From: Macrostomum lignano
Taxonomy: Eukaryota
Direction of reading: 5' to 3'
Assembly (NCBI GenBank): GCA_002269645.1
Contig: NIVC01002167.1
Location: 1-30,630 of the forward strand
DNA length: 30,630 nucleotides
Within the stretch, counting starts at the first letter, position 1, and every line of letters starts with the position of its first letter. Of this stretch, positions 5,880-30,570 are shown piece by piece. Below the pieces are notes generated by a model, which saw nothing but the letters and a program-made list of their open reading frames with translations, was not told the DNA's origin and ran no database searches. Made by a program: the position numbers and the translations under genes.

Positions 5880-5927
5880 TCGCGCAGCGCAGAGACTGGG
5901 ATGATGCTTTAACTTGCAGAAGTCACA

Positions 5928-7125
5928 CTACTTCTTTTGATAACAAGTCTTTGTGGCATGACCTTTAGAGAGGCAACTGAAGCAGCGTCTTTGTTCTTTC
6001 AAGAACTGAAGCCTAGCAGGCACATCCACCAGTCGATTGCAACTCTCCGGAGCATGTTCAGCGTCACAATAAGGCTCTGGCTCTGGCGACCTTCGTAGCC
6101 TTCGTCTGCAAAGCAGATACCGTGCCTTCCTTGGTTTGCCTGTCAACAGTGGAAGCCTCTGATGAACTGGCTGCTTGAACTCCTGCTCCGAAAGCCGCTT
6201 CCTCTCTAACCAGGATTTCAAGTCCAAGACATTGAGGAATTCCTTGATCGAATCTAAGCCGTTCTCATCCGTCACCTGTAGCTGACTGACACCATAGAAA
6301 GGCCGTAAGGCAACCATCCTGGCAGTTCTAAGCATCCCGAGACGGACCACTTCGTATGAAGCAACGTACACTCACCCCGAGATTCTCCAGGCTGCGGACA
6401 TTGCCGTTGACTTGATCGTGGAAGTTTCTGAGTTGGTGGACTGAAGCACCTGAACAAGTCAGCGCCGAGAACTTCGCCAGATGCTCGCGCACGGCTCCAC
6501 TCCGGGATCCAAACCGTCGTTGCAGGTTATCGATCTTGTCGATCTTATCGATCTTGTAGTTCTCGGCTGTGATTTTACGGCCGGCGATCGAATTCTTGGC
6601 TTCTCCTGAAAGGCACGATTGCAGGTAGCTAAACTTTTCGACGACGCTGAGGCTCGGGTTGTCGTGGATGCTGGAGCTGAAGCGGTCCCAGAATGCAGTC
6701 CATTGCGTCCAATCTCCATTGAATGCTGGCGGCGGCAGCCTAATGGCCGGCGTAGTCGTCAAAGCAGAATTCTCTCGCGGTGACGTGGATGGAGTTGACT
6801 TTTTCGTTTGCTGTTGATCTTTAGCCTGCATGCGGCTTTCTCGCTCGGCCTGAAGACTCTGCAGTCGCTTGGCAAGACTCGAAATCATCTTCCCAGCCAG
6901 TAGCTCTCACTCCATCGTCTTCTCCACTTACTCTTGGAGTATTTTCTCGTCGATCTCAACGGACAGCTCTTTATCCGCTGCCAGCAGCTGTTGCTTCTTG
7001 AGGCGCAGGGCTTCCAGTACGCTGTCGATGTCTTCCTCAGCAGCCCCTGAGTTGAGCAGGTCTTGGGCTTTCTGGGCTAATCTGGTGACCGTCGCTCTCA
7101 AAACTCCACGCTTTTTGGAGCCCAT
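5928..7125 (-). pseudogene. gag: BEL/Pao gag (N-terminal coiled region, central domain, CCHC zinc knuckles), frameshifted
   Basis: ORFs 6928-7155, 6328-6888 (FNGDWTQWTAFWDRF...EKFSYLQSCLSGEA) and 5928-6371 (CDAEHAPESC, CFSCLSKGHATKTC). Confidence 0.9.
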
Positions 7126-12335: not shown

Positions 12336-12388
12336 ACAGACAGACGTCTAATTCGCTCGTGTAGAGTTGAACTCTCAACTCTAACGCA

Positions 12389-12760
12389 AGTAGTATAGGA
12401 AAAGTAGGTTTGAGCGCAACCCATTTTGAAAAATCACAAAAAACAGATAAAAATCGACTAAAAACAGGTGAAAATTGTCTGAAAACAGTGATTTTAGTGA
12501 TTTTTCAAAAGTTTCGAAAAATTGCTTTTTGCGCGATTTCGTGAGTAAAATCACAAGAAATTTTTGATTCGTGGGTTAAAATAACCTATTTTCAGGTTTC
12601 ATCATTTCAAAACTAGCATCAAATTTAATAATAGTCTTTTCTCCCATTGCATAACGCCCTTCAATAAGCCAATCTTACTAGCTTTGCTTTTAACGATCAG
12701 TCAGCTACCATCTATGCATAAAAATTGTCCACTCGAGGCATACAATGCTTTTACAAAAGT
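12389..12760 (+). repeat. Left terminal inverted repeat, diverged, including a dead copy of the PLA2-integrase 5' end
   Basis: Aligns by eye with the reverse complement of ~29230-29615 (GACTAAAAACA.GTGAAAAT.GTCT.AA.ACAGTGATTTTAGTGATTT) and of ~29990-30285. The ATG equivalent reads ACG near 12652. Confidence 0.8.
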
Positions 12761-12935
12761 CAATAATTTGCTCCTGCACATTCGCTTTGTCCCGAGGCTT
12801 TGAAATGGCTTTAATGCTGTTCTAGATTTGTACTTAAAGATAATAGAAGACATTCAAGAACATGGAGCGCTAATTTAAATTTTTCGTGACATGCATACTC
12901 GACTACTAGAGCACTAACCGCAGCACTCAACATTT

Positions 12936-13018
12936 CTATTGGCTGCCAAAATTTCTGCCAAAACCAAAATTTTTGCCAAAATTTCTGCCAAAAAGTGTTT
13001 GGTTTTGGCATCCAATAG
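12936..13018. repeat. Mini hairpin element with internal CTGCCAAAATTT units (copy 1)
   Basis: CTATTGGCTGCCAAAA...TTTTGGCATCCAATAG inverted arms. A second copy lies at 28212-28301 and a collapsed form at 13329-13345. Confidence 0.8.
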
Positions 13019-13614
13019 GAGTGGCTCGTGCAAATCTTTTGTGTTCACCCTCTATCTAGCTGTAAAAAAAGACATGAAGTGGGCCACGCAAGTTACAAAC
13101 GAACAATGCTCTCGCGACCCTACCTACGGACGATTTCACTAACCCTTTTCTAAATTATGTATCTTAAAAATGGAACAAATAGCAGGAGAAATTCTCCTCA
13201 AAGCAATTTTTATATTGTGACTCAGCTTTAACGTCGTGCGAAACCCACACTGAGTGAAGCGTATGGTCAAATAGGCTCTCGCAGGAACTCACCAAACTAA
13301 CTATACATAACCGCAGCACTGAACATTGCTATTGGCAACCAATAGGAGCGTCTCATGCTAGTCTATTGTGTTCACCCCTTTCTAAAAAGACACGAAGCGC
13401 ATCACGTTACAGAATCATGCAAGATAAGAGACTATACAATAGGCGAACCACTAGAGTATAATGGAGAAGGTCTTTTTTGATACTATAAGCACCATATCCA
13501 ACTTAGTAAAAGACAAATCTACCTTTCATAGAACAGGCAGGTGCAGCAGGCTCTATTGCTACAGCAGTTAACGCAGCCTAAGTCTGTAGATTACTTAAAT
13601 TTATTTTTATAAAA

Positions 13615-14973
13615 ATGGCCTTCAGTAAACCATTATTTCTAGGTTCTGCATTGGATATTCAGTCAGCTATAACAAAACTACCACCCATCTTCGCCACTGG
13701 AAAATATCCTGGCGAATTTCATATTCCAGGGTATTCTTTCACTGGCCCAGGTACAAATTTAGACAAGAGACTCAATCCAATTACAGACTGGCCTCGGTAT
13801 GATAGTCTACCAATTAATCCAATTGATTGGACTGCTTACTATCATGACAAAAGCTATAGAGATGCTGAAAAGACGTCTTCAACTCCAGAGGAAGCCCTAG
13901 CAAAGAAGCATATTGCTGATGAAAAAATGATAGCTGATTTAGATGCTATTCCAACCAGCGACTTGTCGGTAAAGGAGAGACTCATTAGAAATCTAGTAAA
14001 GCGTATTATCAATGCTAAAGTTCGGTTTGGATTAGGAATTCATACTCACAACCCCAACAATTGTATAGACTGTCTAACAATTTATGGTAAGGGTCTTAGC
14101 TATGAAGATGCAGTAAAATTGCATAGGGAATACAGAAAGCCAAGAGTATTTAGAAAAATGATTCACTATGCAAAAGACACAATTTGGCATGCAGATATCA
14201 TTATCCTACCGCCCGAAAGAGGTTACAAATATGCTCTCACTATCATAGATGGTTTTACACGTTACGCCTGGGCAGTTCCTTTGAAAACAAAGACGGGAGC
14301 GGAAGTTGCAGAAGCTTTCCAAAAAGTATTTAAGGAATCAGGAAGACGATCAGAGAGACTTTGTGTAGATGAAGGCAAGGAGTTTTATAATCAGCATATG
14401 TACAAGCTATACTCGTTTTCAAAAGACAACATTAGAAAGAAGGATGAAAGGGGTGAATATATTAACAAGATGTTTTCAATTTATGGCGAGTCCAAGAATG
14501 CAATGATTGAGAGGTTCAATCGTACTCTCACAAATAAACTCTGGTTTGAATTTGATCTACAGGGTAATCAGAAGTGGCTCCACACATTGCCAGCTATTGT
14601 TGAAAAATACAACAACACAATCCATTCTGAGATTCTGATAACTCCTTCAGAAGCATCTAAACATCCTGAGCGAGTACCAAAGCCAACTTTCGAGTATTCA
14701 AATGAGAAACCAAACTTCAAAGTAGGTGACAAAGTTCATATCTATAGATATAAGGAGCACTTTGAAAAGGGTCGAAGAGGATATTGGAAAATTTCAGAAG
14801 TGTTTAGGATAAAGAAAATAGTTTACTCCAATCCCATAACCTACATTATTGAGGATGAGAATGGAGAAGAAATCATTGGATCATTTTACAAATCCCAGCT
14901 TCTACCAGCAAATTTTTCAACTAAAAATGAGCGCCTATCGAACAAACTGCAAACGGGCGAAAGGTCAGATTGA
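13615..14973 (+). CDS. Parvovirus-type phospholipase A2 domain fused to a retroviral-like DDE integrase
   Basis: PLA2: PGYSFTGPG, INPIDWTAYYHDKSY. Integrase: WHAD, TIIDGFTRYAWAVPLK, CVDEGKEF, MIERFNRTL and C-terminal FKVGDKV...PITYIIED...GSFY. One open frame of 452 aa. Confidence 0.92.
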   Translation: MAFSKPLFLGSALDIQSAITKLPPIFATGKYPGEFHIPGYSFTGPGTNLDKRLNPITDWPRYDSLPINPIDWTAYYHDKSYRDAEKTSSTPEEALAKKHIADEKMIADLDAIPTSDLSVKERLIRNLVKRIINAKVRFGLGIHTHNPNNCIDCLTIYGKGLSYEDAVKLHREYRKPRVFRKMIHYAKDTIWHADIIILPPERGYKYALTIIDGFTRYAWAVPLKTKTGAEVAEAFQKVFKESGRRSERLCVDEGKEFYNQHMYKLYSFSKDNIRKKDERGEYINKMFSIYGESKNAMIERFNRTLTNKLWFEFDLQGNQKWLHTLPAIVEKYNNTIHSEILITPSEASKHPERVPKPTFEYSNEKPNFKVGDKVHIYRYKEHFEKGRRGYWKISEVFRIKKIVYSNPITYIIEDENGEEIIGSFYKSQLLPANFSTKNERLSNKLQTGERSD

Positions 14974-15349
14974 AACGTCTGATTCACAACTACTAGCTGA
15001 TAAAGAGGGTGAAGGAATTGGTGATATGATCAGTGGTGTCACAAACTTTTTATCAAATCATGGAAGTAAAATTGTGAGTGGAGCTGATGCAATAGGTAAA
15101 ACAGCTACCACAGCGAAGAACATATTCGATGCGAAGAAATCATACAGTGACATGTCTAAAGCAGGTGAGGAACTGGAATATATTAAAAAGAAACGTAGAG
15201 ATAAAGAAGCAAAGAAAAGAATGGAAGAAGAGCAACAGATAGCTTCTCAATCAAATAAGGCTATTCAAGATATTGTTAAAAAGGCTCTAGGAACAGCAGA
15301 ACAGTCTCAAGTGTCTTTGAGACAAGGCAATGGTTTGAAGAAATTCTGA
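14927..15349 (+). CDS. Small putative virion core protein (140 aa) with GxG motifs
   Basis: ATG at 14927 in TAAAAATG context. EGEGIGD followed by an amphipathic-looking segment, a basic KKKRRDK patch and C-terminal QGNG. Sits in the structural gene block. Function inferred. Confidence 0.6.
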   Translation: MSAYRTNCKRAKGQIETSDSQLLADKEGEGIGDMISGVTNFLSNHGSKIVSGADAIGKTATTAKNIFDAKKSYSDMSKAGEELEYIKKKRRDKEAKKRMEEEQQIASQSNKAIQDIVKKALGTAEQSQVSLRQGNGLKKF

Positions 15350-15357
15350 CCTTAAAA

Positions 15358-15810
15358 ATGAGCGAGAAAAACACTGAAGCAAGACTCAATCGATATGTTC
15401 GAGAGGGAAAACCAAGATATGTTACTGTAAATAAGCAAAAGCAATATCTTTCTAAAGAGAAGATTCGAGAATTGCAAGAGAAACAGAAAGAACATGAAGG
15501 TGGAATAATTCCTCTATTAGGCTTACTACCAGCAATTTTGGGTGGTATCGGAGCAGCCTCAGGAGTTGGTACAATGATTGCAAAAAGTGTTAATACAGCC
15601 AACAATGCTAAACATAATAAGACAATAGAAAGCATTGAACGGCAAAAACTAGAAGAGTTGAAAAAGGCTCAAGGGAGTGGAGTATTAGTTGATGCGGCTA
15701 AAAGAGTCGAACAAGTACCCAGCGAAGCAGTCAAGTGGCTGCTAAAGACGTTTAAAGTTGAAAAGGAGAAACAGGGTAATGGGATAATTCTTAGACCTCA
15801 TGAAGCTTAG
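15358..15810 (+). CDS. Putative core protein with an adenovirus pX-like GG-hydrophobic segment
   Basis: Basic N-terminus, then EGG|IIPLLGLLPAILGGIGAASGVG, resembling the pX C-terminal GG|FLPLL-type segment. Also QGSG and QGNG motifs. Confidence 0.65.
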   Translation: MSEKNTEARLNRYVREGKPRYVTVNKQKQYLSKEKIRELQEKQKEHEGGIIPLLGLLPAILGGIGAASGVGTMIAKSVNTANNAKHNKTIESIERQKLEELKKAQGSGVLVDAAKRVEQVPSEAVKWLLKTFKVEKEKQGNGIILRPHEA

Positions 15811-15830
15811 TTGAAATTTCTCTTATAAAA

Positions 15831-17192
15831 ATGGAGAACAAAAAGGATATACTGAGCATATATGAGGACAAAACTTTTAGCTTTTTCAAAAAGAAAGAAG
15901 ACTATATTAAGATTTCTCCAACTCCAGGTAGCACTAATAATCTCAATGTTGCAGGAGGTCAAATAGTTCATGAAGTCAATTCAACAGAGTCATACATTCT
16001 CATGTCAGAGGCATTCGGTTGTATAAAATACTCAATAACACAACGAGATAACACCGACTTGAATACGAACATTACTCTAGAACATAATTGGCCTATGAGA
16101 CTTTTCTCTCAACTCATAGTTGACATTGGAGGAACAAAGAAAGTCTATAATGATCCTGGAGAGTATGACACAATCTTAAAGTCCGTAATGTACTCAAAAT
16201 TAATGAATGAAGTTGGAGAAGCATACGGATGGATTCCAGACACTGGAGATGCTGGGACTGTTTCTGATATACCTCTAGCAAACAACGCAGATGCTGAAGC
16301 TGTGAGAACTGCAGCAATCGCTATGAAAAATAGACTCAATAAGAAGGATTCGAATACTGGATACATTAGGAGGCTTGAAAATTATAACAATGTCACTAAT
16401 GCTCCAAACAGAGGTGGAACAATCAAACTATCATTAACACCCTCATTGGGTTCCTTGATTGGCAGAAGATTAGCAAAGGAATTAAATATAAATTCACATG
16501 GACAAGAAAGACTAACGATGCTGAAATTTTCTTTGGAGCTGCCGGGACGGAAGCTAAGTTAACTATTAATAGCTTTGAGATTTGGATCCCTGCTATTACT
16601 TTGTCACCCAGTGCTGAAGCAGCTTTTCTAAAATCACTCAACAAGGACATTACAGTATCATTTCCAGAGAGGGTAACGGTTCCGCCACAACTCATTCAAG
16701 GAAGTCCATATACATGGAACATAGCCAACATCTCCAATATGCCACTTGCAATCTTTGTAGCTTTCAAATATGACGTAAACAACCCATCATATATAGTTAA
16801 TGATCACAAGTATGTGTCTTACAAAACTGGAGCAAATGCAGTGAAAATAACCCAGCTTCAAGTCAGATTAAATCAGGTGATGTATCCGAATGATTATGTT
16901 GAAATTGATCCAGTAGCTCAAGACATTCACAGAGCGTATGAAATGTACGAAGACATCTGCAGCCGTTTCGGTGTAACTCCTCCATTCAATAAACAAGACT
17001 TTCTAACCATCTATCCAATCTTTTGCTTTGATCTAACAGCTCAGATGAGTTTCTGTCAAGAGTGGAGTGAATATTCAATTATTTATCAAGAAGTCAACAA
17101 ATGTTGAGCTGACTGCTTTTGCACTAATTCTTGAACAAACAAAGAATGTAATAAAAGTTACCAGTGAATATCAAATGACCCGCGTCGAATAA
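15831..17192 (+). pseudogene. Double-jelly-roll major capsid protein, two frameshifts (~16447 and ~17045)
   Basis: LNVAGGQI, NWPMRLFSQLIVDIGG...DPG, GW; bridging frame FLDWQKI...FEIWIPAITL; ITQLQVRLNQVMYP, RAYEMY, YPIFCFDLTAQ. The third frame ends ...YQMTRVE* at 17192. Confidence 0.85.
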
Positions 17193-17213
17193 GGTCATTT
17201 TTTCTTTTTTTAA

Positions 17214-17987
17214 ATGCCCAAAGTAAAATTTCAGCATGATCCTATTTTCCCTAATCCTCTTTTATGTTGTATTATCGGCGCTACAAATACGGGTAAAACA
17301 TATTTACTATTCCATATTCTTACAAGTCCTGAAAAACTAGTTGACTTTAATGAGTTAGTTTTATATGTTCCCAGAGCATCTCAAATGGATCCAGAGTATC
17401 AGTTTCTAAAATATGGCTTTGAAAATGGTCTCCCACCTTCTCTTATCAACTCACTCTATCATGTCTACCAGGTGAGTGAGGATGCATCTCCTGAAGATAT
17501 TAGACATATTTGTCGAGAGGCAGCCAACCCTGGTCGAGTGCAAAGCACATCAGAAAATTCAGAAGTAATAGAGAAAATTCCTGTCACTCTTTCCCATACT
17601 CCAAATGAAGAAATTTTTCATAATGGACTAAAGACATGTGTGATATTGGATGATGTTTTGGGAGAGGCTAATCAAACATTTCAGGAAAGTCTGTTTCAGA
17701 GAGGCAGGCATGGAAACTGTTGTGGTTTTTATCTAGCTCAAAATTTTACCAAACTAGATCGCAATACTGTCAGGGAGAATACGACATGTTACATAATCTT
17801 TAAACAAAAAGATACAAACTTGAATCACATTGCTAGAAATATAGAAACGAATTATGAACCCGCTATATTCAAGGCTAAATGTAGAGAGGCTTGGAAAAAG
17901 AAGTATGGCTATATCTATATAAATACAAGAGCTGATGAGGATGAGCAAGATTTGTATAAGGATGTTCTAACTAAAATCCCATTGTAA
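17214..17987 (+). CDS. A32/FtsK-like genome packaging ATPase
   Basis: Walker A GATNTGKT, Walker B CVILDD, GRH motif and LAQNF. Intact 257-aa frame. Confidence 0.93.
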   Translation: MPKVKFQHDPIFPNPLLCCIIGATNTGKTYLLFHILTSPEKLVDFNELVLYVPRASQMDPEYQFLKYGFENGLPPSLINSLYHVYQVSEDASPEDIRHICREAANPGRVQSTSENSEVIEKIPVTLSHTPNEEIFHNGLKTCVILDDVLGEANQTFQESLFQRGRHGNCCGFYLAQNFTKLDRNTVRENTTCYIIFKQKDTNLNHIARNIETNYEPAIFKAKCREAWKKKYGYIYINTRADEDEQDLYKDVLTKIPL

Positions 17988-17989
17988 AA

Positions 17990-18717
17990 ATGACTAATGA
18001 ATATATAAGAGAACTCATTAATTTAGCAAAGCAGCGAGAAATGTACAAATCCAGAAATGATGCTCAACGCTATTTGAAAATTGGAGAAGAGAGTTTATAT
18101 GCAAGAGTGGCTCCATTAGCTCAAAAACCTGTCACAGAAAAGCTTGATGAATTTATTGATGTCAATGCCAACCTTGTTGATAAACTTCAGAATCAAAAAG
18201 TTCCAGTTCCGCAATCAAGTACACCAAAAGGACGATTTGAACCTCTGGAAGTATTTGACAAAATAATTGAAGAAATTGGAAAGATTCCAATAACTCAAAG
18301 ACCAGCACTAGTATACGAATTCAAAAAACTGATGCTGGATATATATTTGGATCATCTGTAATAGATGTTGAATTCCATGAACAAGGTCGAGACATCATTG
18401 TCAACGAATTTCGAATGCCATTTTCTGAAGATCTTGAAGAGTTGTTCAAAATGCCTAAAGTAACTGAAAATGGTGAAGAGCTGAAGCAATTCAAGATGCA
18501 AACATTGCAGGATTATGTTAACCTCATTGAACATTGTAAAAATCCAGCGGCCAAATCAAGTGGGAATTATAAGCAAGCAGTAAGGATATTGAAAGATAAT
18601 CCACCAGGATATCGAGTAAAACCGGGATCTGGACTCAGTGAAAGAGTGTTGACATTACTAGCCGCAAGCAGAGGACATAACAATGTTGATAAAGAGCTAG
18701 CAGAATTACTTGCTTAA
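17990..18717 (+). pseudogene. Conserved Polinton structural-block protein, one frameshift (~18340)
   Basis: ORFs 17990-18361 and 18415-18717 join through GSSVIDVEFHEQGRDIIVNEF. The N-terminal YLKIGEE...KPVTEKL and C-terminal GSGL...LLAASRGHNNVDKEL resemble a recurrent Polinton ORF. Exact family name not assigned. Confidence 0.6.
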
Positions 18718-18719
18718 AA

Positions 18720-19496
18720 ATGGAAAAAGAAATAGAAAAAGTCAACATCCTCTTGAGTAAAAAGTTTCAACGCACATTTGACTTCTTTTCAATTAAAAAC
18801 CCATTTCGACAAACTCTAGGCACTCCTATAAATTTGTATGAAGATCGAGAATACGAAGCTGGTATAAAAAAGTTTGCAGTCTTTGATGCTATTAACAATA
18901 TTGAAGGAGTTGCGATACTCGAGGGATAGTGGTAGAACATGGAAAAATAAAGATTCAAGCAGGGTCTTGGGAAGTTAAAAGTCTGTCAAGCGAGATTCAA
19001 AGATTGCTAACAGCTGCAAATGATTGGAAAGAGGGGGCTATTGTTTTCAGTGCAAGCCTAGACACGCGTAGAGTTGAGTTACGGTTAGCCACAGATTATC
19101 AAGTTGATTTCAGGGATGCACATTCCAATAACTTTAGAAGACTGTTGGGATTCAATTCGGAAGTGTATTTGAAACCATTTGAGAGAGCTCCAAATCCAGC
19201 TCGGATAGACGGAGCTAGAAGTGCGATCATGGTTCGTTGTCTAAATATCAAAGGGGGTTTATCACTGATCCAGCTAATGGAAATCATTTAATTGATAAGC
19301 AAATACTTCTTTCAATTCCATCGTTCTCTGTCCCAATGGGAAGTAAAATTATTCAAGAGCCGCAAATCCTGTGTACCTACCACTAACTACAAACATGTTG
19401 AGCACATTCGACTTTGTCATCGAAGATGAGTCTGGTGTTCTATACGACTTTGATGGCGAGGAAATATTTATAAATCTTCACATACGACAAATATGA
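18720..19496 (+). pseudogene. Minor capsid protein (penton, single jelly roll), at least four frameshifts
   Basis: Fragments INNIE, RYSRDSGRTWK, IQAGSWEV, LLGF, VRC, VPMGSKIIQEP, VYLPL and EDESGVLYDFDGEEIIINLHIRQI* in changing frames. Confidence 0.8.
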
Positions 19497-19505
19497 GTGT
19501 TAAAA

Positions 19506-19934
19506 ATGAGCGAAGCTGAGACATGGAATGCATTTAAACAAAAGTTTGGACTGACACTACGACTAATATTGATCTGATAAATTGGGCAAAATATCTCAAG
19601 TTAAAACCATTTCGCTATGCCATGAGAGATGAAATTGTTGATTTACCACAGTATGGTTACTTTATGACAAATATTCACACTTCGAAAGAACGGGGTATAC
19701 ATCATTCAGCTATATTTTCAGCTCCTGATAAGGTTTATTTTTTTGATTCCTATGCACTACCCCACACTGGAAATTATGGAAAAGTTTAATCACACAAAGA
19801 ATAGAATATGTGGAGACATGGAAGAACAAATTCAAACTTTTGATAAGAAATTTTGTGGTCAAATGTCGCTGTACTTTTTACACCGAATCGATAAAGGAGA
19901 TAGCTATAATGAAATTTTGCAGCAATTAAAATGA
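19506..19934 (+). pseudogene. Adenain-like cysteine protease, frameshifted
   Basis: TNIDLINWAKYL, NIHTSKERGIHH (catalytic His), YFFDSY (Asp), QIQ...FCGQ (oxyanion Gln, catalytic Cys). At least two frame changes. Confidence 0.85.
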
Positions 19935-21310
19935 GTTACAAGAATACTGCCAATCAATTTGGTTACTCGTCAAATTCAAATGATATAGCACCTGGAATAA
20001 CAATAGCGTTAGCTGATGATCGATACATCAATGAAAATGAAGGATATAAGAGAGAGGAAATAGATAATTTATTGTTAGCAAAGAGAAATGTTTCAGACTC
20101 TTATTCAAAGGAAGATAGTGACGCAATGAATATCACCATGCTACAATTAATTGACGATGCTCATGGGCGCGTAAACAATGTCTACACAAAAACCGAAACT
20201 GACACTAAGATGTATTCTAAAACTGAGATTGACACTAAGATGTATTCTAAAACTGAGATTGACACTTTGTTAGCAGAAAGGCAAGGTACTGTGCGGGGGT
20301 ACAAGAGTTCGAAATTAGTCAATATTCTTTCATTACTGACTTCAAACGCTTCCCATCCTGACATGAAAGTGACCGCTTCTCATAACTCTTCAGCAGCATA
20401 TCATGTTGCAGATTCAAACCCAGCTTCAGAATGGAGCAGTGTAGATGACTCAGACAAGTGGATACGATTTCAATTTTTGAAAAGAGCTAGGAAAGTTGTA
20501 GAGATAAAGTTGGAAGGAGAGGTGTGGCCTGGTTGGTCTGTTAGTGTGAGCCTAAATGGAACAAACTGGACACCTGTTGAACAAAGTGCACCCATTGAAC
20601 TACGAAGGGGCAATGCACATCTTAGGAAAAAAATACCCAATCCCTCATATTATTTCCATTATTCTCTTAATTTTTCTGGTTCCGTAAAGCTTACAAAAGT
20701 TGAATTACTTGAGAGACAAACAGTGGTTAATGATTTAGTGTGGCCTATAGATAGACTTCAAGCTGTACCAAAGCTATACGTAGACAATGCACTTGAATCA
20801 GTGGAGCTGCGACTAAGGCGGGGACTAGGTTTCAAATCTTATACAGGATATATTCCCTCACTAGCAACACGTCAAAACTATAGAGAAAGGGGTTTCAATG
20901 TAGCGTCATCAGGAGCATTTGAAACGTCAGATAATTGGGGTTATGTAGTATCTAATTCAGAATGGGCATCGAGGAATGAACCCAATTCTTACATTGAAGT
21001 ACAACTTCCCGAGTCTATTCAAATTTGGAAATTCGGATTGAAAGGAACCAAAGCAGTAGGTAGTGAAATTATAAAAAATCAACCAAAAAGTTTTATTCTA
21101 AAAGGTAGCAATAACAAGAGAGACTTTAAGAATATTTTTTCTACCGAAAACGCTGGTTTAGTTCCTGGAGTGATGAAGTATTTCGAAGTAGCTTCCACCG
21201 AAAAATTCTCCGTTTATAGAGTGCATATTAATTCGGCCACTGAAGGATCAACTGTTCTTATAGTTTCAGGCTTTCAACTTTATCCGATTTTAGACATAAT
21301 TGCCACATAA
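19931..21310 (+). CDS. Putative fibre/spike: tail-fibre-like repeats plus two discoidin/F5-8C-like beta-sandwich domains
   Basis: Five Y(S/T/K)(K/R)xExD repeats, including a perfect 30-bp duplication at 20201-20260. Two modules of the type TAS/ASS...EW...WI/YIxxQ(F/L)...GSN...W/F. Intact 459 aa. Confidence 0.65.
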   Translation: MSYKNTANQFGYSSNSNDIAPGITIALADDRYINENEGYKREEIDNLLLAKRNVSDSYSKEDSDAMNITMLQLIDDAHGRVNNVYTKTETDTKMYSKTEIDTKMYSKTEIDTLLAERQGTVRGYKSSKLVNILSLLTSNASHPDMKVTASHNSSAAYHVADSNPASEWSSVDDSDKWIRFQFLKRARKVVEIKLEGEVWPGWSVSVSLNGTNWTPVEQSAPIELRRGNAHLRKKIPNPSYYFHYSLNFSGSVKLTKVELLERQTVVNDLVWPIDRLQAVPKLYVDNALESVELRLRRGLGFKSYTGYIPSLATRQNYRERGFNVASSGAFETSDNWGYVVSNSEWASRNEPNSYIEVQLPESIQIWKFGLKGTKAVGSEIIKNQPKSFILKGSNNKRDFKNIFSTENAGLVPGVMKYFEVASTEKFSVYRVHINSATEGSTVLIVSGFQLYPILDIIAT

Positions 21311-21325
21311 AAATAATTGATAAAA

Positions 21326-22052
21326 ATGAACACATCTATCCTGTGGTTGAGCTGCATGAAGCAGATTTGAGGGAGCGGGACTATTTCAATCAGAGAAAGG
21401 GTGAAATCAAAGGCAGTATTGAATGCATTACTAAAGATCTTACAATTTATAGCAAAAAGGTAAAAAAGTACAAACGGCAAAGTAGCAGGATAAATTGGAT
21501 CAACATTGTGACAGGAAATGTAAGTCTCTTGGCTGCTACAGGAATTGGCATAGCAACATCGATACTGACATTGAATCCCTTAGTCATTGGAGTAGTAATC
21601 GGGGCAATGAGTGGTTTTGAAGCTGTAAAATCCACGTCGTTGTTTGCAACTGTGAAAATGCACTGCCAAAAGCAGAAGGCAAAATACATTGTTTTCAGAG
21701 ATCTGGCAAATCAATACAGAGAGAGATTGTATATTTACTCCCAAAAAGCAGTTGATGATTATAGATTAAATCTTGAAGAGGTTCAAGCAGCTACTGCAAT
21801 TTATTCAGAATACAGAGAGAAAAGAGATCAATTGTTAGACGCCTGTGTTGCGCCTGAAGAAGTTAACCATTCGGAAGTCGTTGATAAAATTCTCAAAGAG
21901 AGTAGACTTGGTCATTCAGCGAAGGAAAAAATAAAAAGGAACTGCTAGAGAAAGATCTGAGAGAAAAATTGGGTCTAGCTGATAAGCCAAAAGAGTACTC
22001 GGCAACACTCAATATTCAATCAAATGCTCCAAGTGCACCTCCCTACAATTAA
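21326..22052 (+). pseudogene. Polinton membrane protein with a central hydrophobic hairpin; reconstructed with two 1-nt corrections
   Basis: Core ORF 21343-21948 has KKYKR followed by a long hydrophobic segment. TAAAAATG at 21321-21328 is one base out of frame. An alternative frame after ~21935 ends ...NAPSAPPYN* at 22052. Confidence 0.65.
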
Positions 22053-22077
22053 TATTGTATAATTTTTTTTCTAGAAA

Positions 22078-22383
22078 ATGGCTGCAATAAAAGTTCTCCT
22101 AAATGCATACCAAGATGAAATAAAGCGCATTGATAGAGAAATACAAATAAATAACTTTAGGGTGGTGCATACACATCGTGGAATAATAGAACCGGATTAT
22201 GGATATATTGATAAATTAAGTGATCGCAAATGTTTTCTTGAAACTGCTATTGTTTTTGCAGAAGCATTTATTGAAGTTGAAATCGACAAGTTAGTTAAAA
22301 AAATAAAAGAGATCAGGAAGTATGTTGAGTTTAATGATCAGCGCAAGAAACTTCTTAAGCAATTGAATTGTTTGGTTTTTTAA
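22078..22383 (+). CDS. Hypothetical 101-aa helical protein
   Basis: ATG in AAAATG context. Ends 2 bp from the PolB stop (tail-to-tail). No recognised motif. Confidence 0.5.
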   Translation: MAAIKVLLNAYQDEIKRIDREIQINNFRVVHTHRGIIEPDYGYIDKLSDRKCFLETAIVFAEAFIEVEIDKLVKKIKEIRKYVEFNDQRKKLLKQLNCLVF

Positions 22384-22385
22384 AC

Positions 22386-25300
22386 TTATTTGAATCCATG
22401 AGGATGTGTTATAATTCCATTGGATTCAATGTATCTTTTGTCATCGAAAGGACTAATAGCCTTCTTATTTTGTTCTATTAAAGTCATGTTATGCTTGTCT
22501 GATCTAAGGCTATACACTTTCCTATAGACTGGTTCGTTATAATCAAGTAGTATATTTCTATAGTCATCATATTGTACATGATGCTTCACTGTTGACTTTG
22601 AGATTCCCTTTAATTTTTTCTCTTCCTTCCCTTCCTTTTGAGTGCTGACATAAACTGTTTTAAATGAATATGCTTTCGATCTTAGAGCGGTTACTTCTGT
22701 CATTATGCAATCATATTTTGCCAATTCATCCTTGAATGTTCCCAGCTTTCCACAATTAGTCATATCATGTAAATCAATCGGAAGATTTTTTGTATACAGC
22801 GACAAATCGAAATGCTCCTTCATCTGAGCAATGTCTTTATAAATATTTTCTGTCTTTATATGAAGAATGAATGAGTCGGTGTCAGAGGTAACAATCTCAA
22901 CATTATCCCCCCATTTGGACTTGAAAACTTTGTAAAATGTTTCATACATATGCAATTTCGAGAGATCCAGAATTGCTTGTCCAGCGTATGTTGGCTTTGT
23001 TCCAAGAGGGATATTCTTAGGTCGCTGGTGAATGCAAATTAGATTTTCATTGAAGATTTTGAAGTCTATGAAATCTGGCTTGGATATTATCTTAGATATC
23101 TCATCCTCACTTGTCAGCAACTCAAATCGCTTTCTCTTTTTAACATCCTCCATTGTCTTGCCAAAGATGCTTACATTAAGCATTTTGAACTGATTGTCTT
23201 CGAACTCAATTTTTGCTTCTTTTGCCTTCTTTCTTTCTATCGTATTAAACTCGATATACTCCTTTAACCATGGCTTTTCATTGAATGAAATCGTCCTATG
23301 TACTTTTGTCACTTTCAAGCCCATCTCTTCATAGAATCGCAATAGCTTATGATGTACGATATATTTTGTTTTATTTTTTAAATTAAGGATCAATTTAGGA
23401 ACTTTTCCAATCTTTTTCATTTCGACTTCTAGACATCCTTTCTGATATTCACTCAATTCACTTTCTGACACAGTTGTACTTTCAGGTGCTAATGGGAAGG
23501 CATACGTTTTCTTTTTTGATTCTTTTGTATATTCAAGATCACATTCAACAAGACAGCCCCGTCCTTCAGGAGGATTTTTATAATAGTTGGAATCAGCTTC
23601 CCATTTAGTCAGAAAAAGGAAGGGGTTCCAACATACTATAACCATAGAGATTTGTACAATCAACGTAAAGTAAGTAGGAAGTTGGTTTTTCTAAATCATA
23701 GCCTGGAAGATAAGGATTATTTGCCTTTACATATCGTGACCCTAGAACTCCGCTAAATCCACCTCTTATTCCACTATCAATCATATGAATCATATCGATA
23801 TCCGCCAGCAAGTCTAACTCAACTTTACTTTTCTTCAACCCAGCATTCCAACTCAATCCTGGTGCTGAGAAGCATCTGGCTGGATCAATCTCAAAGTGTT
23901 TCAGGAAGAATGTTCTATAGCGTTCGAATACATCTGCTAATAATAGAACGTCAACCTTAAGATACAGCATCATATAATCCTCCAAATTCTTACAATTAAA
24001 AGTTTTCCACATTTGTTTTGCAAAATCATATTCATCTGAAGAAATGTCTTCACCTTTCAACCTCGAGTAAAACTCTTTCAATGGTGGTAACTCAGTTTCT
24101 GCTAATCTTCCAAAGCTTCTGATATACTCATATGGGAATACACCCTTGCGCTTAACATATTGAAAATCGCTGTCGTTTTTAAAGTATTTCTTTGTTATGA
24201 TGAAGTCTTCATCCTTCAGGGACTTTGCGCAGATATCCAGCGAGGAAGCCAAGAACCTGTATGAATCTAGGAACCTCAGTACTACTTTGTTACATCCAAA
24301 CTCGAGAGAAATGTACTCTTCAGAAGTTTTAGATAGTGGAGGAAATAATTTATCCTCCATGATCTCTTTGCTCTTTAAGTGTGTCACTAAGAAGTGAAAG
24401 TCATAGTGGGATCCATTCTGGAAGTAGATTGGGATTACTCGCTTCTTACTTTCGAGAGCATTGCAGGATTTACAGGCAGCCCCTCTATATTTGCCACTAT
24501 AGTGACAATGTTCTCTTACCTTACCTAGCTTAAGTGTGAAGTCATTTTTACAATTCGCACATTTTTCAGCCCTGTAAAACTCTTTCCATTGTTGCTTTGT
24601 GATCTTATATTTACTTATATTATTGCTCTTGTTCAGACATTTTTGCACCAAGATTCTATAGTAACTTTACTGTCAATTTCCTTCACATGCACCTTCATAT
24701 CTGGAACCATATCAAACTCCTTCTCGCATATGTAGCATTGTTTAGCCTTACAGTAAGAAGCCTCCTCTTGCGCTGTCAAATTATGATTAATATGCTTAGG
24801 CTCCTTCAGACCATTCTTAATTTGTTGATGAATTTCAACCATTCTATCAACATATTTTTCCTTGGCATCTGTGCCACAATATCCTTCATACTTCGATTTA
24901 ATTGTTGTTTATAGTTTATAGCTCGTACTTTTAGTACTTTATATAGTAATTGTCAGATACATAATATTGATTAATATTGTTAATGCAAATAGCTGTGCGT
25001 ATCCCTTTCTAGAAAGTTCAATAAATATTCAATACAGTATCGTACCGATATGAACTAACAACCATAGATACACAGGAGCAAATAGCTGTTGAAAAAGCTG
25101 TTGAAAAAACTTCAACATTAATTACCTCGGGTAACTCAGAATGGATATAAAAACCGTAAGCTATTGCGTTCTGATTTGCTACTTTTAGAGTATATGACTC
25201 TTTGTCTAAAATCTTAGTGAAGCTTTTACTTTGTGCTTCAATGGGTTCAGTTGTTGCTTCAAAGTCAGCATAGATAGCGATGGGTAGCTTTAGTTTGAAT

Positions 25301-26430
25301 ATATGATTTTTAAATTTCAGCTTCGATTCTTCCTTAGGTAATTTATAATGACCAGGTGCATTTTTACCGCACAACCTTGAGTGCTCGGCCAACACGGTTT
25401 CACTTGTGTAAACAGTCATGCATGTTCTGCATAAAAATGACTTGTGATTTACACGCTTTCCAGTTTGTTTTGAAACTAATGTTGTAAGATTTTTTATCAG
25501 ACAATAATGAGTCTTACCATCTTCCTCCAAGTATAGTAAATCTACTACATAAGTTCGTTGATTATGAGGTGAGACATAGAGATGTTGTAGTGTATCTGGG
25601 AATTTACCTTCATAATACAGCACATTAACAGCAAACTCTTCATTTAGTCTTTCAAACTTTTTTATATCTTTTATTCTCATGGGGAATTGGATATCGGTGA
25701 GATTAAGTTCTTTTTCATATGGTTTATATTTTGACACTCGATAACCATCTTTATTTTGTGGATGTTTAACAGCTAATACACACCAGAGGAAGCATTTCTC
25801 ATCATCATTCTGAATGTTAAGAATTGATAGACATTTTTTAACTTCATTGTTAGTAAAGAAGGATCCTCCCTGAATGCTAGAAACCTTGGCAACTCTGATG
25901 TAGATAGATTTTATCTGCACAAAGACATTATCTGATCCCTTCTCACAGAACTCATCAATGAACTTTTCCAATATCTTCTGTCTTTCGGTAAGGGCAGCGT
26001 CATACTGTGAATCTGACTGAATATTGTAGAATCCACTTTCATTGTCATAGACTGTGAATGGAGGAATGTCTTCGTTAAAATTCTTTTTGAATTCTAGTTC
26101 AAAATGCAAGTTGAACTTACTCCGTCCACCATCTCTAACTTTCTCCAACACTGCTTTAATTGCATCTTCATACTGAATAAAAACCTTTGTTATATAACCT
26201 TCATTAACATTCCTAATGACGTACTCTGAAATTTCTGACTTCTTATTATACTTCTCTCTAAAGGATTTATGTAGTATTATTTCATCACCAATCTGCGGAG
26301 CTGCCACTTCATCTTCTTTGGACTCCGCTATAGGCTCATTATCTGTGTGCTTTTGCTGCTGACGCCGAAACCGCTCAGCTTGAATGTATTGTTCAAATTC
26401 TTCATCACTCATCTTTCTGAGTTGTTCCAT
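22386..26430 (-). pseudogene. polB: Protein-primed family B DNA polymerase, split by a solo LTR and two frameshifts (~24650, ~23607)
   Basis: ExoI IYADFEA, EndoVII-like REHCHYSGKYRGAACKSCN, ExoII QNGSHYDFHF, ExoIII YLKVDVLLLADVFE, Pol A YVDCTNLYG, Pol B KMLNVSIFGK, Pol C SDTDS, plus KAY, KGI and DDKR. Confidence 0.95.
24903..25117 (+). mobile_element. 215-bp solo LTR inserted in PolB
   Basis: TGTTG...CAACA ends, TTAAT duplicated at 24898-24902 and 25118-25122, and AATAAA near 25020. Removing it restores ELPEVIKSKYEGYCGTDA in frame. Confidence 0.88.
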
Positions 26431-26540
26431 TTTTTATAAAATAAATTTAGCAGGAAAATTATGTAATGACGTTATAAATTTATTGTGGCATCCACACGAT
26501 TAAGCAATTAGAAATGTATAAGCGATATTACAATAGGCAG

Positions 26541-26953
26541 AAAAAGAACCAGATACTGCAGTATTCGATGTGAAAAAGCAGCGAGCAAAAAAGAACCAGA
26601 TACTGCAGTATTCGATGTGAAAAGCAACGAGCAAAAAAGAACCAGATACTGCAGTATTCGATGTGAAAAAGCAACGAACAAAAAAGATCCAGATACTGCA
26701 GTATTCGATGTGAAAAAGCAACGAGCAAAAAAGAACCAGATACTGCAGTATTCGATGTGAAAAAGCAACGAGCAAAAAAGAACCAGATACTGCAGTATTC
26801 GATGTGAAAAAGCAACGAGCAAAAAAGAACCAGATACTGCAGTATTCGATGTGAAAAAGCAACGAGCAAAAAAGAACCAGATACTGCAGTATTCGATGTG
26901 AAAAAGCAACGAGCAAAAAAGATCCAGATACTGCAGTATTCGATGTGAAAAAG
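26541..26953. repeat. Tandem array of nine ~47-bp units, each with the 12-bp palindrome ATACTGCAGTAT
   Basis: Unit AAAAAAGAACCAGATACTGCAGTATTCGATGTGAAAAAGCAACGAGC. Nine palindromes counted. Units are near-identical, with no spacers. Confidence 0.97.
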
Positions 26954-27013
26954 AATAGTCAGCATAATGAGAGTCAGATGTTATGATTCACAACGCGCGC
27001 AATAAGATTTTCG

Positions 27014-27649
27014 TCAGATCAGAAGTGCATCTTCCTCCTCTTCCTCCAGCATCTCCAGGGCTTTCTCAGCGTACTTGATTATAGAACGTAGGCGAAACAG
27101 TGAGATGCCACAACGCCACAGAATTGGATGTGCTGTGCTTAGACGAGCCACTCGGACTAAATAGTTCCCCCACGCCGACTTAAAGCGTAGTCTAGACAAA
27201 AATACTTTATACTCCTCGTCACTCAATGAAAGCTTCATTCTTATTAATATCTGACCAGACTTAATTCCATACTGCAAGCCCCGGCACTGTAGCTCGTTTA
27301 TCATTTTATCAATGGAATTAAGTTCTGTAATTGCATCCTGAAATTGATACTCTCCGTCCATAAATTCATTAATCTCTCCCGGCTCTTGATGCTCCATCGA
27401 ATCCCGCAGTATTTTAGCAGCTTCTGCTATTCGTTCCTTTGTCTTGTCCACTCTCTCCAATCTACCTCGAAAAGTTGGAATAGCAAACTTCTTCCTATTA
27501 AATTTTCTAGCAACCTTGTTGTATTCTCCTATCCATTTCTTACAATGCTTTAAATCCCCACTACAAAAAATCTTCTTGATAAGACTATCGAGGTCGGATT
27601 CGAATGATGCCATTGCTGCCTCCATACGGGATTCTAAAATGTAGGGCAT
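27014..27649 (-). CDS. Hypothetical 211-aa Polinton accessory protein, possibly helical DNA-binding
   Basis: Intact ATG-started frame. The C-terminal half (GQILIRMK...FLSRL...YLVRVARL...LWRCGIS) looks like a small helical bundle. Acidic tail. Confidence 0.6.
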   Translation of the reverse strand: MPYILESRMEAAMASFESDLDSLIKKIFCSGDLKHCKKWIGEYNKVARKFNRKKFAIPTFRGRLERVDKTKERIAEAAKILRDSMEHQEPGEINEFMDGEYQFQDAITELNSIDKMINELQCRGLQYGIKSGQILIRMKLSLSDEEYKVFLSRLRFKSAWGNYLVRVARLSTAHPILWRCGISLFRLRSIIKYAEKALEMLEEEEEDALLI

Positions 27650-27839
27650 TATAACTATTTAGTATCAAAATCAACACAAGAACAAAACTCTTATTTCTTA
27701 CCTTTTCGTTGTTGCTGAGTTGTGTGATTTATATGTTCGCTCTGTTTGCTTTAGTCTGTCTGATAAACGTGTGTTGTATTGCTTCCAAAACTAAAGCGGG
27801 TTTTTATCAAGCCACCTAAGCGACTTCTTACATGCGCAC

Positions 27840-28141
27840 TGAGTCATGAAAATAGAGAAAAAACTGCCATGGCCGTGCTTTAGAGTTGGGGTTTAAGAGG
27901 TGCTCAATTCCTGCTGCAGCATGCTGATATTCAAAACCTATTGATAAAGGAACAATAAATTCTTATTGACTCAACTGCTAAACTGTTAGGGTTAGGTTAG
28001 TTGCTTTGCTTCATTCTTGATGCGAAAAGCTAGAAAGAATGTTGAGTCATTCTGCTTTAAAGAAAAAAGGAACATAGTTTCTTTCAGTGTGCATTGTGCA
28101 GTGCGATGCCGAGCTTCTCAAGTAACTACAATTCTGACTCA
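27840..28141. promoter_or_regulatory. Cluster of four AP-1-type sites (TGASTCA) in a divergent intergenic region
   Basis: TGAGTCA at 27840, TGACTCA at 27967, TGAGTCA at 28043 and TGACTCA at 28135. Confidence 0.5.
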
Positions 28142-28211
28142 TGTGGGTAGACTTTTTTCTGCATCTGGCATGAGCCTGCAAGTTGCATTCTTTTCACCCA
28201 TTGTCGCTTTC

Positions 28212-28301
28212 TCATTGGCTGCCAAAATTTCTGCCAAAATTTCTGCCAAATCTTGCGACCAAAATTTCTGCCAAAAAAGTTTTGGTTTTGGCAACCAATG
28301 A
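28212..28301. repeat. Mini hairpin element with internal CTGCCAAAATTT units (copy 2)
   Basis: TCATTGGCTGCCAAAA...TTTTGGCAACCAATGA. Same orientation as copy 1 but unrelated flanks. Confidence 0.8.
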
Positions 28302-28377
28302 TAATACATCATAGTGTAAATAGTGTATTTTATATTGCCCAAGCTTCAGTTGTGTTTTTATGTGATCAAGCTGAAAA

Positions 28378-28812
28378 ATGCCATCAGAAATAGAACTGCG
28401 AAAGCGATACAAGGAACATAAAAAAGCATTTGAGGAAACTGAGCGGAAGATTCGAATACTCCTACCTTCAACTTTATTTGCTGGCCTAGATCCCGAAACA
28501 TTAATTGCTCGACTTAAAGGAGCTGATGTCCATCGGTCATTTAAGAAGGAAACAGCTCTTCTAAACCTGCTAAAGGAGAATCTGTCCAAGCGTAGAAGTA
28601 TGCAGACCTATGCTATTCAGTTTCGCAATTTGGAAGCTGATGTGCGGGATTTGACAGCTGTGGAGAATGAAGTATCGCCACCACCATCACCACCACCACC
28701 ATATCAAGGCAGTGCTGCAACTGCTGATCAAGCTCGTGGTACAACTGATGATCAAGCTCGTGCTACAACTGATTATCAAGCTCCTGCTACAACTGCTGAG
28801 ACCACTGACTGA
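28378..28812 (+). CDS. Hypothetical 144-aa accessory protein with PPPSPPPPY and 8-aa repeats
   Basis: ATG in GAAAAATG context and an intact frame. Charged helical N-terminus, SPPPSPPPPY, then (A/T)(A/D/T)DQAR-like repeats from a ~24-bp tandem. Confidence 0.6.
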   Translation: MPSEIELRKRYKEHKKAFEETERKIRILLPSTLFAGLDPETLIARLKGADVHRSFKKETALLNLLKENLSKRRSMQTYAIQFRNLEADVRDLTAVENEVSPPPSPPPPYQGSAATADQARGTTDDQARATTDYQAPATTAETTD

Positions 28813-29229
28813 CTAATTTGAACTGCTCTATTGACTGTAGTACGATTATATGTACAATTAATTTTAAGAAATCAGTGAGAGTACACTTATACCCATAGAG
28901 CTGATGCTTTATCAACATAAATTCTTTAATTAATCGTAAAAGACGCAAAAACCCTTACTTAAACCCTTACCGGATTTAAGTATGTCATTACATCAGTTTT
29001 CTACCTTTAATGCTATATAACTTATTTAGAAGTAATTGCAGCTATATTCATGCGGAGGTGCTAATTTAAAATTAGTTTAAATACTTTATGATTTTAATCT
29101 TTACTTCAACATATCATAATTACTAAATAAATTTTTGGTTAAGTAAAATTCAACTGAGGGTCGCGGACTTAAAGCCCGATGACTAGCAAGGACATTGACT
29201 TCCTCACTGAGGCCACATGGTGACCTGCG

Positions 29230-29615
29230 AAATTGTATGATGCTATATGAAGTTCTCCTGGGTATTTGCCAGTGGAGAAAATCTAAGGCAGTTTTTTATA
29301 GCTAACTGAATGTCTAAAGCAGTTCCTAGAAATAGTGGTTTATTGAAGGCCATTTTATGACGAAAAAAGTAAGCAAAATCAAATTTGATGACAGTTTCAA
29401 ATTGTTTACACCTGAAATGGCATTGAGATGAACCAACGATTCCAAAATAACTATTTGGTTTTAGTGCTAGAATTGTGTAAATGGCACTTTTTCAAAATTA
29501 TTAAAAAATAAATCACTAAAATCACTGTCTTAAGACCATTTTCACATGTTTTTAGTCATTTTTCAGTGAATTTCATGGTATGCTCTGCGCTTAAACCTAC
29601 TTTTCCTATACTACT
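29230..29615 (-). repeat. Right terminal inverted repeat (inner), including a frameshifted copy of the PLA2-integrase 5' end
   Basis: Ends ...CCTATACTACT. Minus-strand ATG at 29353 begins MAFNKPLFLGTALDIQLAI before a frameshift. Confidence 0.8.
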
Positions 29616-29907: not shown

Positions 29908-30285
29908 TCAGAGCTGTTGGCTTGCAAAAGAATACCCTGGTATATGAAATTCGCCAGGATACTTTCCAGTGGAAAAGATGGGTGGTAGTTTTGTTATAGC
30001 TGACTGAATATCTAAAGCATTTCCTAGAAATAATGGTTTACTGAAGGCCATTTTATATATATAAAATTTACTATTGTTAAATTGGATGACACTTTCATGG
30101 ATGACATACTTGAAATTGCATTAAATTGACCGTGAATCCAACTTTTCTCATGGTTTTAGAGCTGGAATCGTGAAAATTGCACTTTTTCAAAATTTTTGAA
30201 AATCACAAAAAATCGCTGTTTTCAGACCATTTTCACCTGTTTTTAGTCATTTTTCATCTTGTTTTTAGTGATTTTCAAAATGAGT
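29908..30285 (-). repeat. Second right-hand terminal module with a 47-codon copy of the PLA2-integrase 5' end
   Basis: 30051 to 29908 encodes MAFSKPLFLGNALDIQSAITKLPPIFSTGKYPGEFHIPGYSFASQQL*, about 9 mismatches in ~127 nt versus 13611-13737 by hand count. Its upstream sequence aligns with the left TIR but lacks the AGTAGT tip. Confidence 0.85.
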
Positions 30286-30471: not shown

Positions 30472-30570
30472 AGTAGTAGTATGTTATAAGGGCTGAGTCA
30501 TCCAGCGAGCTGGCGCGCAATGCGCCCGAGCAATCAAGTGTGGCGCAGCCCCTTATAGCATACTACTACT
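30472..30570. mobile_element. 99-bp AGTAGTAGT-capped inverted repeat (mini-Polinton-like element or hairpin terminus)
   Basis: Left arm AGTAGTAGTATGTTATAAGGG-CTGAGTCA pairs with the right arm, whose reverse complement is AGTAGTAGTATGCTATAAGGGGCTGCGCCA. No TSD seen. Confidence 0.7.

Follow-up and report, generated by a model that had tools for sequence, protein, structure and literature searches.

The ORF3 protein of hepatitis E virus carries a PSAP motif, and the capsids of this RNA virus exit in host membrane through the ESCRT machinery. Late domains of this kind are short, multiple, exchangeable and position-independent (PMC8402826), and retroviral Gag proteins combine several of them: HIV-1 p6 carries PTAP and YPXnL, and MLV carries PSAP, LYPAL and PPPY (PMC8402826). 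Bluetongue virus protein NS3, a viroporin-like accessory protein of a non-enveloped virus, contains a PSAP that binds TSG101, and NS3 drives non-lytic release (PMC7409164). Among DNA viruses, one iridovirus draws on each of the three ESCRT routes (PMC4880917).

The particles of animal Polintons are deduced from capsid genes. Vertebrate Mavericks, whose virions had not been observed as of PMC8097293, encode a PW protein between the capsid genes, to which no match of the protein family described below was made. Adintoviruses supply membrane-active accessory proteins of animal Polintons, GasderminX, Cupiennin and PLA2X, which are candidates for entry or lysis (PMC8502044), and membrane-active adintovirus genes are also treated in 10.1101/2025.02.07.637071. 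So far, enveloped particles have been put forward on one basis only, the nematode Maverick fusogen called MFUS-1 (10.1101/2022.07.12.499685), and the descriptions given of these four proteins name no exit machinery (PMC8502044, 10.1101/2022.07.12.499685).

Here, we describe a predicted hairpin membrane protein of a Polinton from Macrostomum lignano that carries the motif pair YPx3L and PSAP, follow the motifs through the element's copies and a large unannotated protein family, and weigh the proposal that the protein recruits ALIX and TSG101.

A Polinton gene for a predicted hairpin membrane protein

The window, by which we mean the whole stretch of 30,630 nucleotides analysed from contig NIVC01002167.1, contains the following features.

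12389–29615, no strand assigned: Polinton/Maverick element of 17.2 kb, with inverted ends starting AGTAGT
13615–14973: PLA2-integrase ORF, 452 aa, a parvovirus-type PLA2 and an integrase in one ORF
17214–17987: A32 ATPase
19931–21310: F5/8 type C domain protein, 459 aa (E 4.2e-10), candidate fibre or attachment protein
21313–22052, plus strand: gene for the 246-aa predicted hairpin membrane protein; window copy without an in-frame start and with a frame break at about 21925–21945
21337–21354, plus strand: YPx3L (YPVVEL, residues 9–14), predicted ALIX ligand, where the short N-terminal arm joins the first helix
21454–21480, plus strand: polybasic stretch including KKYKR (21463–21477), directly before the hydrophobic segment
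21490–21618, plus strand: 43-residue uncharged stretch (residues 60–102), hydrophobic tip of the helical hairpin and predicted membrane anchor
22029–22040, plus strand: PSAP (residues 240–243), predicted TSG101 ligand, in a non-helical C-terminal tail; PTAP in two sister copies
about 22386–26430, minus strand: pPolB, Pfam match
28378–28812, plus strand: 144-aa accessory protein with PPPY at 28693–28704, then short repeats

Hallmark domains identify the element as a Polinton (PolB PF03175, E 1.3e-8; integrase PF00665, E 7.1e-10; A32 ATPase PF04665, E 6.9e-6). Its terminal inverted repeats (12389–12707 and 29299–29615) are 70% identical over 329 nt and 97% identical over the outer 30 nt, and no target-site duplication is present in the bases that flank 12389 and 29615. 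The major capsid, minor capsid and protease genes are presumed from gene order and from homology to other copies; two ORFs at 15831–17107 had no Pfam match. The membrane-protein gene follows the F5/8-domain gene and points towards the polymerase gene's end.

Several other observations were made on the element and its surroundings. The capsid, protease and polymerase regions of the window (15831–19930 and 22386–26430) are split into several frames, and the polymerase is a single 1,275-aa ORF in another copy, C781; because public contigs show indels at several such places, some of these breaks may be assembly errors. The PLA2-integrase ORF recurs in copy C781 at 100% identity. Two inverted partial copies of the start of this ORF lie at 29223–29356, inside the right end, and at 29923–30070, beyond it; AGTAGT ends occur again at 30472 and 30567, which suggests that a second or nested element is present. 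Between the integrase and the presumed capsid gene (14855–15810) lie two ORFs, one with an amphipathic-looking stretch and the other with GG followed by a hydrophobic stretch, which resemble, by eye only, the Cupiennin and pX-type proteins named for adintoviruses (PMC8502044). The last codons of the F5/8-domain gene encode LYPIL. At 26480–27000, upstream of the polymerase start, lie nine 47-bp tandem repeats. An M13 (neprilysin-type) peptidase ORF (10101–12347, minus strand), uninterrupted throughout, adjoins the element's left end, and fragments at 3589–6888 (minus strand) look, by eye, like a BEL/Pao retrotransposon.

The coordinates that the original prediction assigned to YPx3L (YPVVEL), PSAP and the PPPY protein are exact, and its KKYKR is confirmed at 21463–21477. 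The protein start it proposed, MEHIY, was rejected: the ATG at 21326 lies in another frame and opens an ORF of only 14 codons, and unbroken sister copies begin at the position equivalent to window 21313, where the window copy has no start codon. It had further held that joining PSAP to the protein takes a 1-nt correction. There is indeed a frame break, in an A-rich stretch at about 21925–21945, after which the first reading frame of the window copy stops at 21948; it is one of two defects, the in-frame start also being missing. The link between YPx3L and PSAP does not depend on any correction, as natural unbroken sister ORFs hold both motifs, and 21948 was rejected as the true family end since these ORFs read through to PSAP. 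Because sister copy L003, which is 99.7% identical to the window, reads unbroken to PSAP, and because contigs from four of four public runs show an indel relative to the window at this point, an assembly error is the probable cause of the frame break. L002 and L003 lack the start as well, and its absence is probably real.

Both motifs are conserved among sister copies and outside homologues

The host genome holds at least 40 close copies of the gene at 91–100% identity (40 of 51 candidate matches scored). Thirty of these 40 were fetched, one being the window itself, which left 29 sister copies for examination. Both motifs stand in one unbroken ORF in 20 of the 29 (19 of 246 aa and one of 249 aa), and the ORF is broken in the other nine. 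The natural ORF of sister copy L004 (protein P0001) served as the reference for later comparisons.

In the window and its sister copies PSAP or PTAP satisfies the exact P[S/T]AP consensus. Codon variation was followed in 17 of the 19 unbroken 246-aa copies (12 distinct DNA sequences; two copies with an upstream in-frame ATG were left out): 16 codons show silent variation and 16 a change of amino acid, and the only amino-acid change within either motif is the S to T exchange in PSAP. In 100,000 shuffles of P0001, YPx(1-3)L arose in 9.8%, P[ST]AP in 0.15% and both in 0.018%, and none placed both motifs within 30 residues of the protein ends. A six-frame scan of the window found 13 lone YPx3L and one P[ST]AP.

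Seven homologues from outside the host genome, at 63–69% identity, extend the comparison. YPx3L is present in five of the five that include the N-terminus, with different residues in its three middle positions, and the C-terminal PSAP is present in six of the six that reach the C-terminal end, despite indels in both flanks. The third residue after the tyrosine is lysine in those five N-termini, which fits YPx3L and does not fit YPxL or YxxPhi. The positional conservation of YPxnL and P(S/T)AP that the original prediction looked to in homologues thus holds within the protein's own clade.

A large unannotated family carries the motifs in its N-terminal arm

A weak match, P0009 (E 0.09), led to 120 relatives among the matches listed, and a profile of 18 sequences gathered a family of 2,557 clusters at E ≤ 0.001. 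Motif statistics cover the best 150 of these 2,557 clusters; 28 of the 150 representatives had no full N-terminal arm and were dropped by geometry alone, leaving 122, in which the core was set by a core-only profile.

In the 122 N-terminal arms from the best 150 clusters, YPx[LIV] occurs in 107 (mean of 2,000 shuffles 4.0, maximum 12), YPxL in 84 (1.9, maximum 6), [LI]YPxL in 73 (0.2, maximum 3) and P[ST]AP in 48 (0.8, maximum 5), the last being absent from the other 74. YPx(1-3)L is found in 89 arms (5.1 in shuffles), joined by P[ST]AP in 34 (mean 0.025, maximum 2 in 2,000), and at least one of the two is present in 103 (5.8 in shuffles). Neither motif type appears in any of the 122 cores. 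The wider family thus bears out the expectation of conserved motifs in that the counts of YPx[LIV] and P[S/T]AP stand far above the shuffled ones. PPxY was rejected as a feature of the family, being found in six of the 122 arms and in 3.1 after shuffling.

The motifs are constrained in composition and free in arrangement. Serine or threonine fills the variable position in 48 of 52 PxAP words, alanine instead of proline precedes [ST]AP in ten of 61 cases, and the proline after the tyrosine is kept in 114 of 122 arms. P[ST]AP comes before YPx[LIV] in 22 arms and after it in 20, and the YP lies 6–46 residues before the core. This variable order and spacing, together with the exclusion from the core, is the pattern that modular late domains would leave, and to be position-free, exchangeable and multiple is how late domains are described (PMC8402826). 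In a tree built from the core alone (119 rows), P[ST]AP switches between present and absent at least 28 times, and the motif order is altered at least eight times, counts with no label shuffle behind them and drawn from a poorly resolved tree (short search, 53 of 116 forks open). As the arm had been part of the search profile, we also compared the 37 representatives whose core score alone passes the listing cut-off with the other 85: YPx[LIV] occurs in 30 of 37 and 77 of 85, and P[ST]AP in 14 of 37 and 34 of 85. As the frequencies are similar in the core-passing set, profile bias does not create them.

The original prediction had the two motifs bracket the protein, YPx3L first and PSAP last. 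This is true of the query's own clade and does not carry over to other members, in which both motifs lie in the N-terminal arm; one sister subfamily has neither. Only one of 122 C-terminal arms contains P[ST]AP, and it belongs to a member of the query clade. The bracketing layout is restricted to that clade. In the P0009 clade, 105 of 110 arms have YPx[LIV] and one has P[ST]AP.

The host genome holds two further families. Family 2 (L031–L040), at 16–17% identity, has one to four P[ST]AP plus LYPx[IV] in nine of ten copies, the tenth ORF being without the arm; its gene sits among ATPase, protease-like and polymerase genes. Its P[S/T]AP is expanded in tandem from one to four repeats, differing between element copies, and the protein ends in an arginine-rich tail. 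Family 3 (L041–L060) is the sister of the query clade on the tree (SH-aLRT 100; 34–40% core identity), and all 20 fetched copies lack P[ST]AP, YPx(1-3)L and PPxY. It is a high-copy family (about 90 of 150 rows listed, by hand count) whose ORFs are mostly open, with the core intact and the N-terminal arm missing, and the same gene order is found in the one element read, a Polinton. Since family 3 is abundant and motif-free, the core has a function for which the motifs are dispensable, in this lineage at least, which is a natural loss-of-motif lineage and serves as a natural control. In the family-3 element an ATG-started integrase ORF spans the integrase part only, and the elements of families 2 and 3 have a related or differently built gene at the position of the F5/8-domain protein.

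The reading of genomic context covers few of the relatives. On L102, an unrelated contig from a metagenome, one distant member is accompanied by a polymerase and an integrase, a Polinton context; no loci of the outside relatives were found in viral contigs, phage records or the first metagenome scan. Ten clusters that we looked up had no names attached, and the atlas matches are likewise clusters without names; the few records that they have point mostly to Mollusca or Nucleocytoviricota, and they serve as leads only.

Predicted structure places a hydrophobic tip on a long helical hairpin

Hydropathy of P0001 peaks at 2.1 in 19-residue windows starting at residues 63–87. The uncharged stretch comprises 43 residues in the query (family median 50), and net positive charge flanks it on both sides in 82 of 122 members. 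An AlphaFold2 model from 79 sequences (pLDDT 82, pTM 0.64) folds residues 12–81 and 90–149 into two helices forming a long hairpin, followed by two further helices, with non-helical ends and a tail of pLDDT 51–65. The first model, built on 18 sequences, agrees with it in layout (pLDDT 69.5). The protein is accordingly predicted to be a hairpin anchor whose tip is hydrophobic and whose two arms lie on the same side of the membrane, and the flanking charge would place these arms in the cytosol by the positive-inside rule. In the models Y9 and P10 of the YPx3L precede the long helix and L14 falls within its first turn, so L14 may be kept in the query clade for helix packing, a structural reading of its conservation.

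In Foldseek the predicted fold matches best with unnamed proteins of invertebrate iridoviruses (E 1.6e-5 to 1.9e-4), followed by several giant-virus SLATT proteins at E 0.01–0.25. By Pfam the protein falls short of SLATT membership: the SLATT_1 match (E 0.027) scores 14.9 bits against a curated cut-off of 26.3, and only one of 79 members matches SLATT at E ≤ 0.01, which makes the protein SLATT-like in layout only. The first model had no PDB match at E ≤ 0.001, and profile matches came only at E ≥ 0.07. With VIA-align, BAR and coiled-coil chains scored best, up to Z 10.9 with 138 aligned (rmsd 3.3); this lies within the generic helical range, and we therefore read no function from it. Neither a gasdermin nor an NS3 entry stands among the Pfam and PDB matches listed, which excludes neither.

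Host partners and a separate PPPY protein

The host genome encodes both presumptive partners. The TSG101 UEV domain has three strong matches (E 1e-44 to human), and of positions Y63, Y68, N69, M95 and F142, which we take to be the PTAP-pocket positions of the human UEV, the host keeps three and differs at two. The ALIX V domain is present, split over exons, and retains the phenylalanine matching human F676. Conservation in homologues and the presence of host TSG101 and ALIX make the ESCRT-recruiting reading well supported by comparison.

The 144-aa accessory protein has 25 matches (L075–L099), 23 with an ORF, and PPPY stands in the same place in 20 of them, including the window's, across 33–100% identity; these 20 are all the full-length ORFs, and the three without PPPY end earlier. 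Its PPPY is likely a real WW-domain ligand. Each subfamily of the protein carries a different short tandem repeat after the motif. The suggestion that the element holds all three classical late-domain types is supported only as far as the conservation of PPPY in its own family; no tie of that protein to the membrane protein, to membranes or to budding emerged.

A candidate ESCRT-recruiting adaptor and its alternatives

We consider the YPx3L and PSAP motifs probably to be true ESCRT ligands that bind ALIX and TSG101. What they would be used for is less settled. We propose, with confidence evenly balanced, that the protein acts as an ALIX- and TSG101-recruiting membrane adaptor, giving the Polinton a non-lytic, membrane-cloaked exit by analogy with NS3. 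In this scheme the protein would sit in a host membrane through its predicted hydrophobic hairpin with the arms facing the cytosol, YPx3L would recruit ALIX and PSAP would recruit TSG101, and the protein may oligomerise at the endosomal or plasma membrane. Its long helical stalk or its C-terminal helices could make contact with the capsid, and scission by ESCRT-III and VPS4 would then release the particle, wrapped in host membrane, without lysis. The broader statement, that the family of 2,557 clusters is a dedicated budding adaptor and that animal Polintons exit quasi-enveloped by means of retrovirus-like motifs on a hairpin anchor, we put forward tentatively, at somewhat under an even chance. 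Several observations count against the proposal: the motif-free sister family 3, the lack of P[ST]AP in 74 of 122 arms and in 109 of 110 arms of the P0009 clade, the place of L14 in the first helix turn, the fit of YPx[LIV] to a tyrosine sorting signal and the two differing positions of the host UEV. The element also has no recognised fusogen.

A different use of the same ligands is conceivable. The motifs may bind ESCRT for the protein's own transport, with ALIX and TSG101 sorting it into endosomal vesicles, shedding it in capsid-free vesicles or limiting its damage, around a core that forms pores or bends membranes in the manner of a viroporin or SLATT protein. Family 3, which retains the core without the motifs, is in keeping with this, as are the weak SLATT likeness (SLATT_1 E 0.027; Foldseek E 0.01–0.25), the proposal that SLATT proteins of Polinton-like viruses form pores (PMC12220804) and the viroporin-like activity that NS3 has as well (PMC7409164). 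Yet the SLATT score lies under the curated cut-off, with one of 79 members at E ≤ 0.01, and two motif types repeated and shuffled over many lineages would resemble budding modules more than a turnover signal; on balance we judge this account unlikely.

The motifs might instead be conserved for reasons outside ESCRT, with YPx[LIV] capping the helix or serving as an adaptin sorting signal and another proline reader binding P[S/T]AP. The YPx[LIV] form of the family also fits the consensus of the tyrosine sorting signal YxxPhi, as do YPVV in the query and YPxL; L14 lies within the start of the helix, and alanine replaces the proline before [ST]AP in the ten cases noted above. The lysine third after the tyrosine in the five outside clade members, however, breaks YxxPhi and keeps YPx3L. 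A proline held after the tyrosine in 114 of 122 arms, at 6–46 residues from the core, is ill-suited to a helix cap, and serine or threonine in 48 of 52 PxAP words also counts against this reading, all of which leaves this explanation quite unlikely.

ESCRT could also be recruited at an inner membrane step, in nuclear exit of capsids or in endosomal remodelling during entry. A DNA virus that integrates has to pass the nuclear envelope, where large nuclear DNA viruses use ESCRT, and iridoviruses, in which the closest predicted folds are found (E 1.6e-5 to 1.9e-4), assemble on internal membranes. Set against this, the use of TSG101 by P[S/T]AP is known mainly from endosomal and plasma-membrane budding (PMC8402826, PMC7409164), and a PLA2 domain, proposed as the entry enzyme of adintoviruses (PMC8502044), is already present in the element; we regard such a step as very unlikely. 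Chance matches in proline-rich, low-complexity ends, for which one could cite the shortness of the motifs, the 13 lone YPx3L in the window's six frames and the motif-free family 3, are largely refuted by composition-preserving family shuffles (the maxima were five arms with P[ST]AP and 12 with YPx[LIV], where 48 and 107 were observed), and with the S/T exchange within PSAP among copies this reading is hardly credible.

Should the adaptor proposal be right, the ALIX and TSG101 signature across the family would name the host machinery for Polinton exit and offer a general route, helping to explain germ-line and between-species spread without visible lysis. Polinton capsids would then be sought in the vesicle fraction, cloaked exit of the NS3 type would extend to integrating DNA viruses, and thousands of 'hypothetical' proteins would gain a function.

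Comparison with known systems

The mechanism type is known; a family-wide module of this kind in animal Polintons appears unreported in open-licence PMC and bioRxiv, where no paper among those listed joined Polintons with late domains, TSG101 or ESCRT egress. Nor did the membrane-protein family match the adintovirus gene names given in PMC8502044, compared by names only.

SLATT proteins of Polinton-like and giant viruses share the arrangement of long helix, hydrophobic hairpin and long helix at a similar size, and differ in being proposed entry pores, with no late domains mentioned where they are described (PMC12220804, PMC8502044, 10.64898/2026.06.19.733378). In the iridovirus tiger frog virus, VP031L, VP065L and VP093L engage ESCRT via ALIX, TSG101 and NEDD4 with the motifs on separate proteins (PMC4880917); iridoviruses differ in being large and having known enveloped forms, and the iridovirus proteins matched by fold are unnamed. 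Hepatitis A virus is alike in that a non-enveloped capsid exits quasi-enveloped in host membrane, with a YPX3L in VP2, and unlike in being an RNA virus with the motif on the capsid itself (PMC8402826).

Retroviral Gag has the same motif pair, which in the N-terminal arm of the Polinton family often lies only a few residues apart, and in both the motifs are movable, multiple and exchangeable (PMC8402826). In Gag they are part of the capsid polyprotein, whereas those of the Polinton are on a separate predicted membrane protein of a DNA element with a presumed jelly-roll capsid.

Bluetongue virus NS3 offers the likeness on which the proposed role is modelled, an analogy, as no search that we ran gave homology to NS3. 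Both are small accessory proteins, that of bluetongue belonging to a non-enveloped virus and having two membrane segments joined by a short loop, with polybasic motifs upstream of the first segment (PMC7409164). NS3 differs in pairing its PSAP with PPRY rather than YPxnL and in serving a cytoplasmic RNA virus (PMC7409164). The bridge from NS3 to the capsid has been demonstrated (PMC7409164), whereas a capsid contact of the Polinton protein is a proposal; the hairpin anchor, polybasic flank and PSAP of this protein would make it a candidate counterpart of NS3 in an integrating DNA element.
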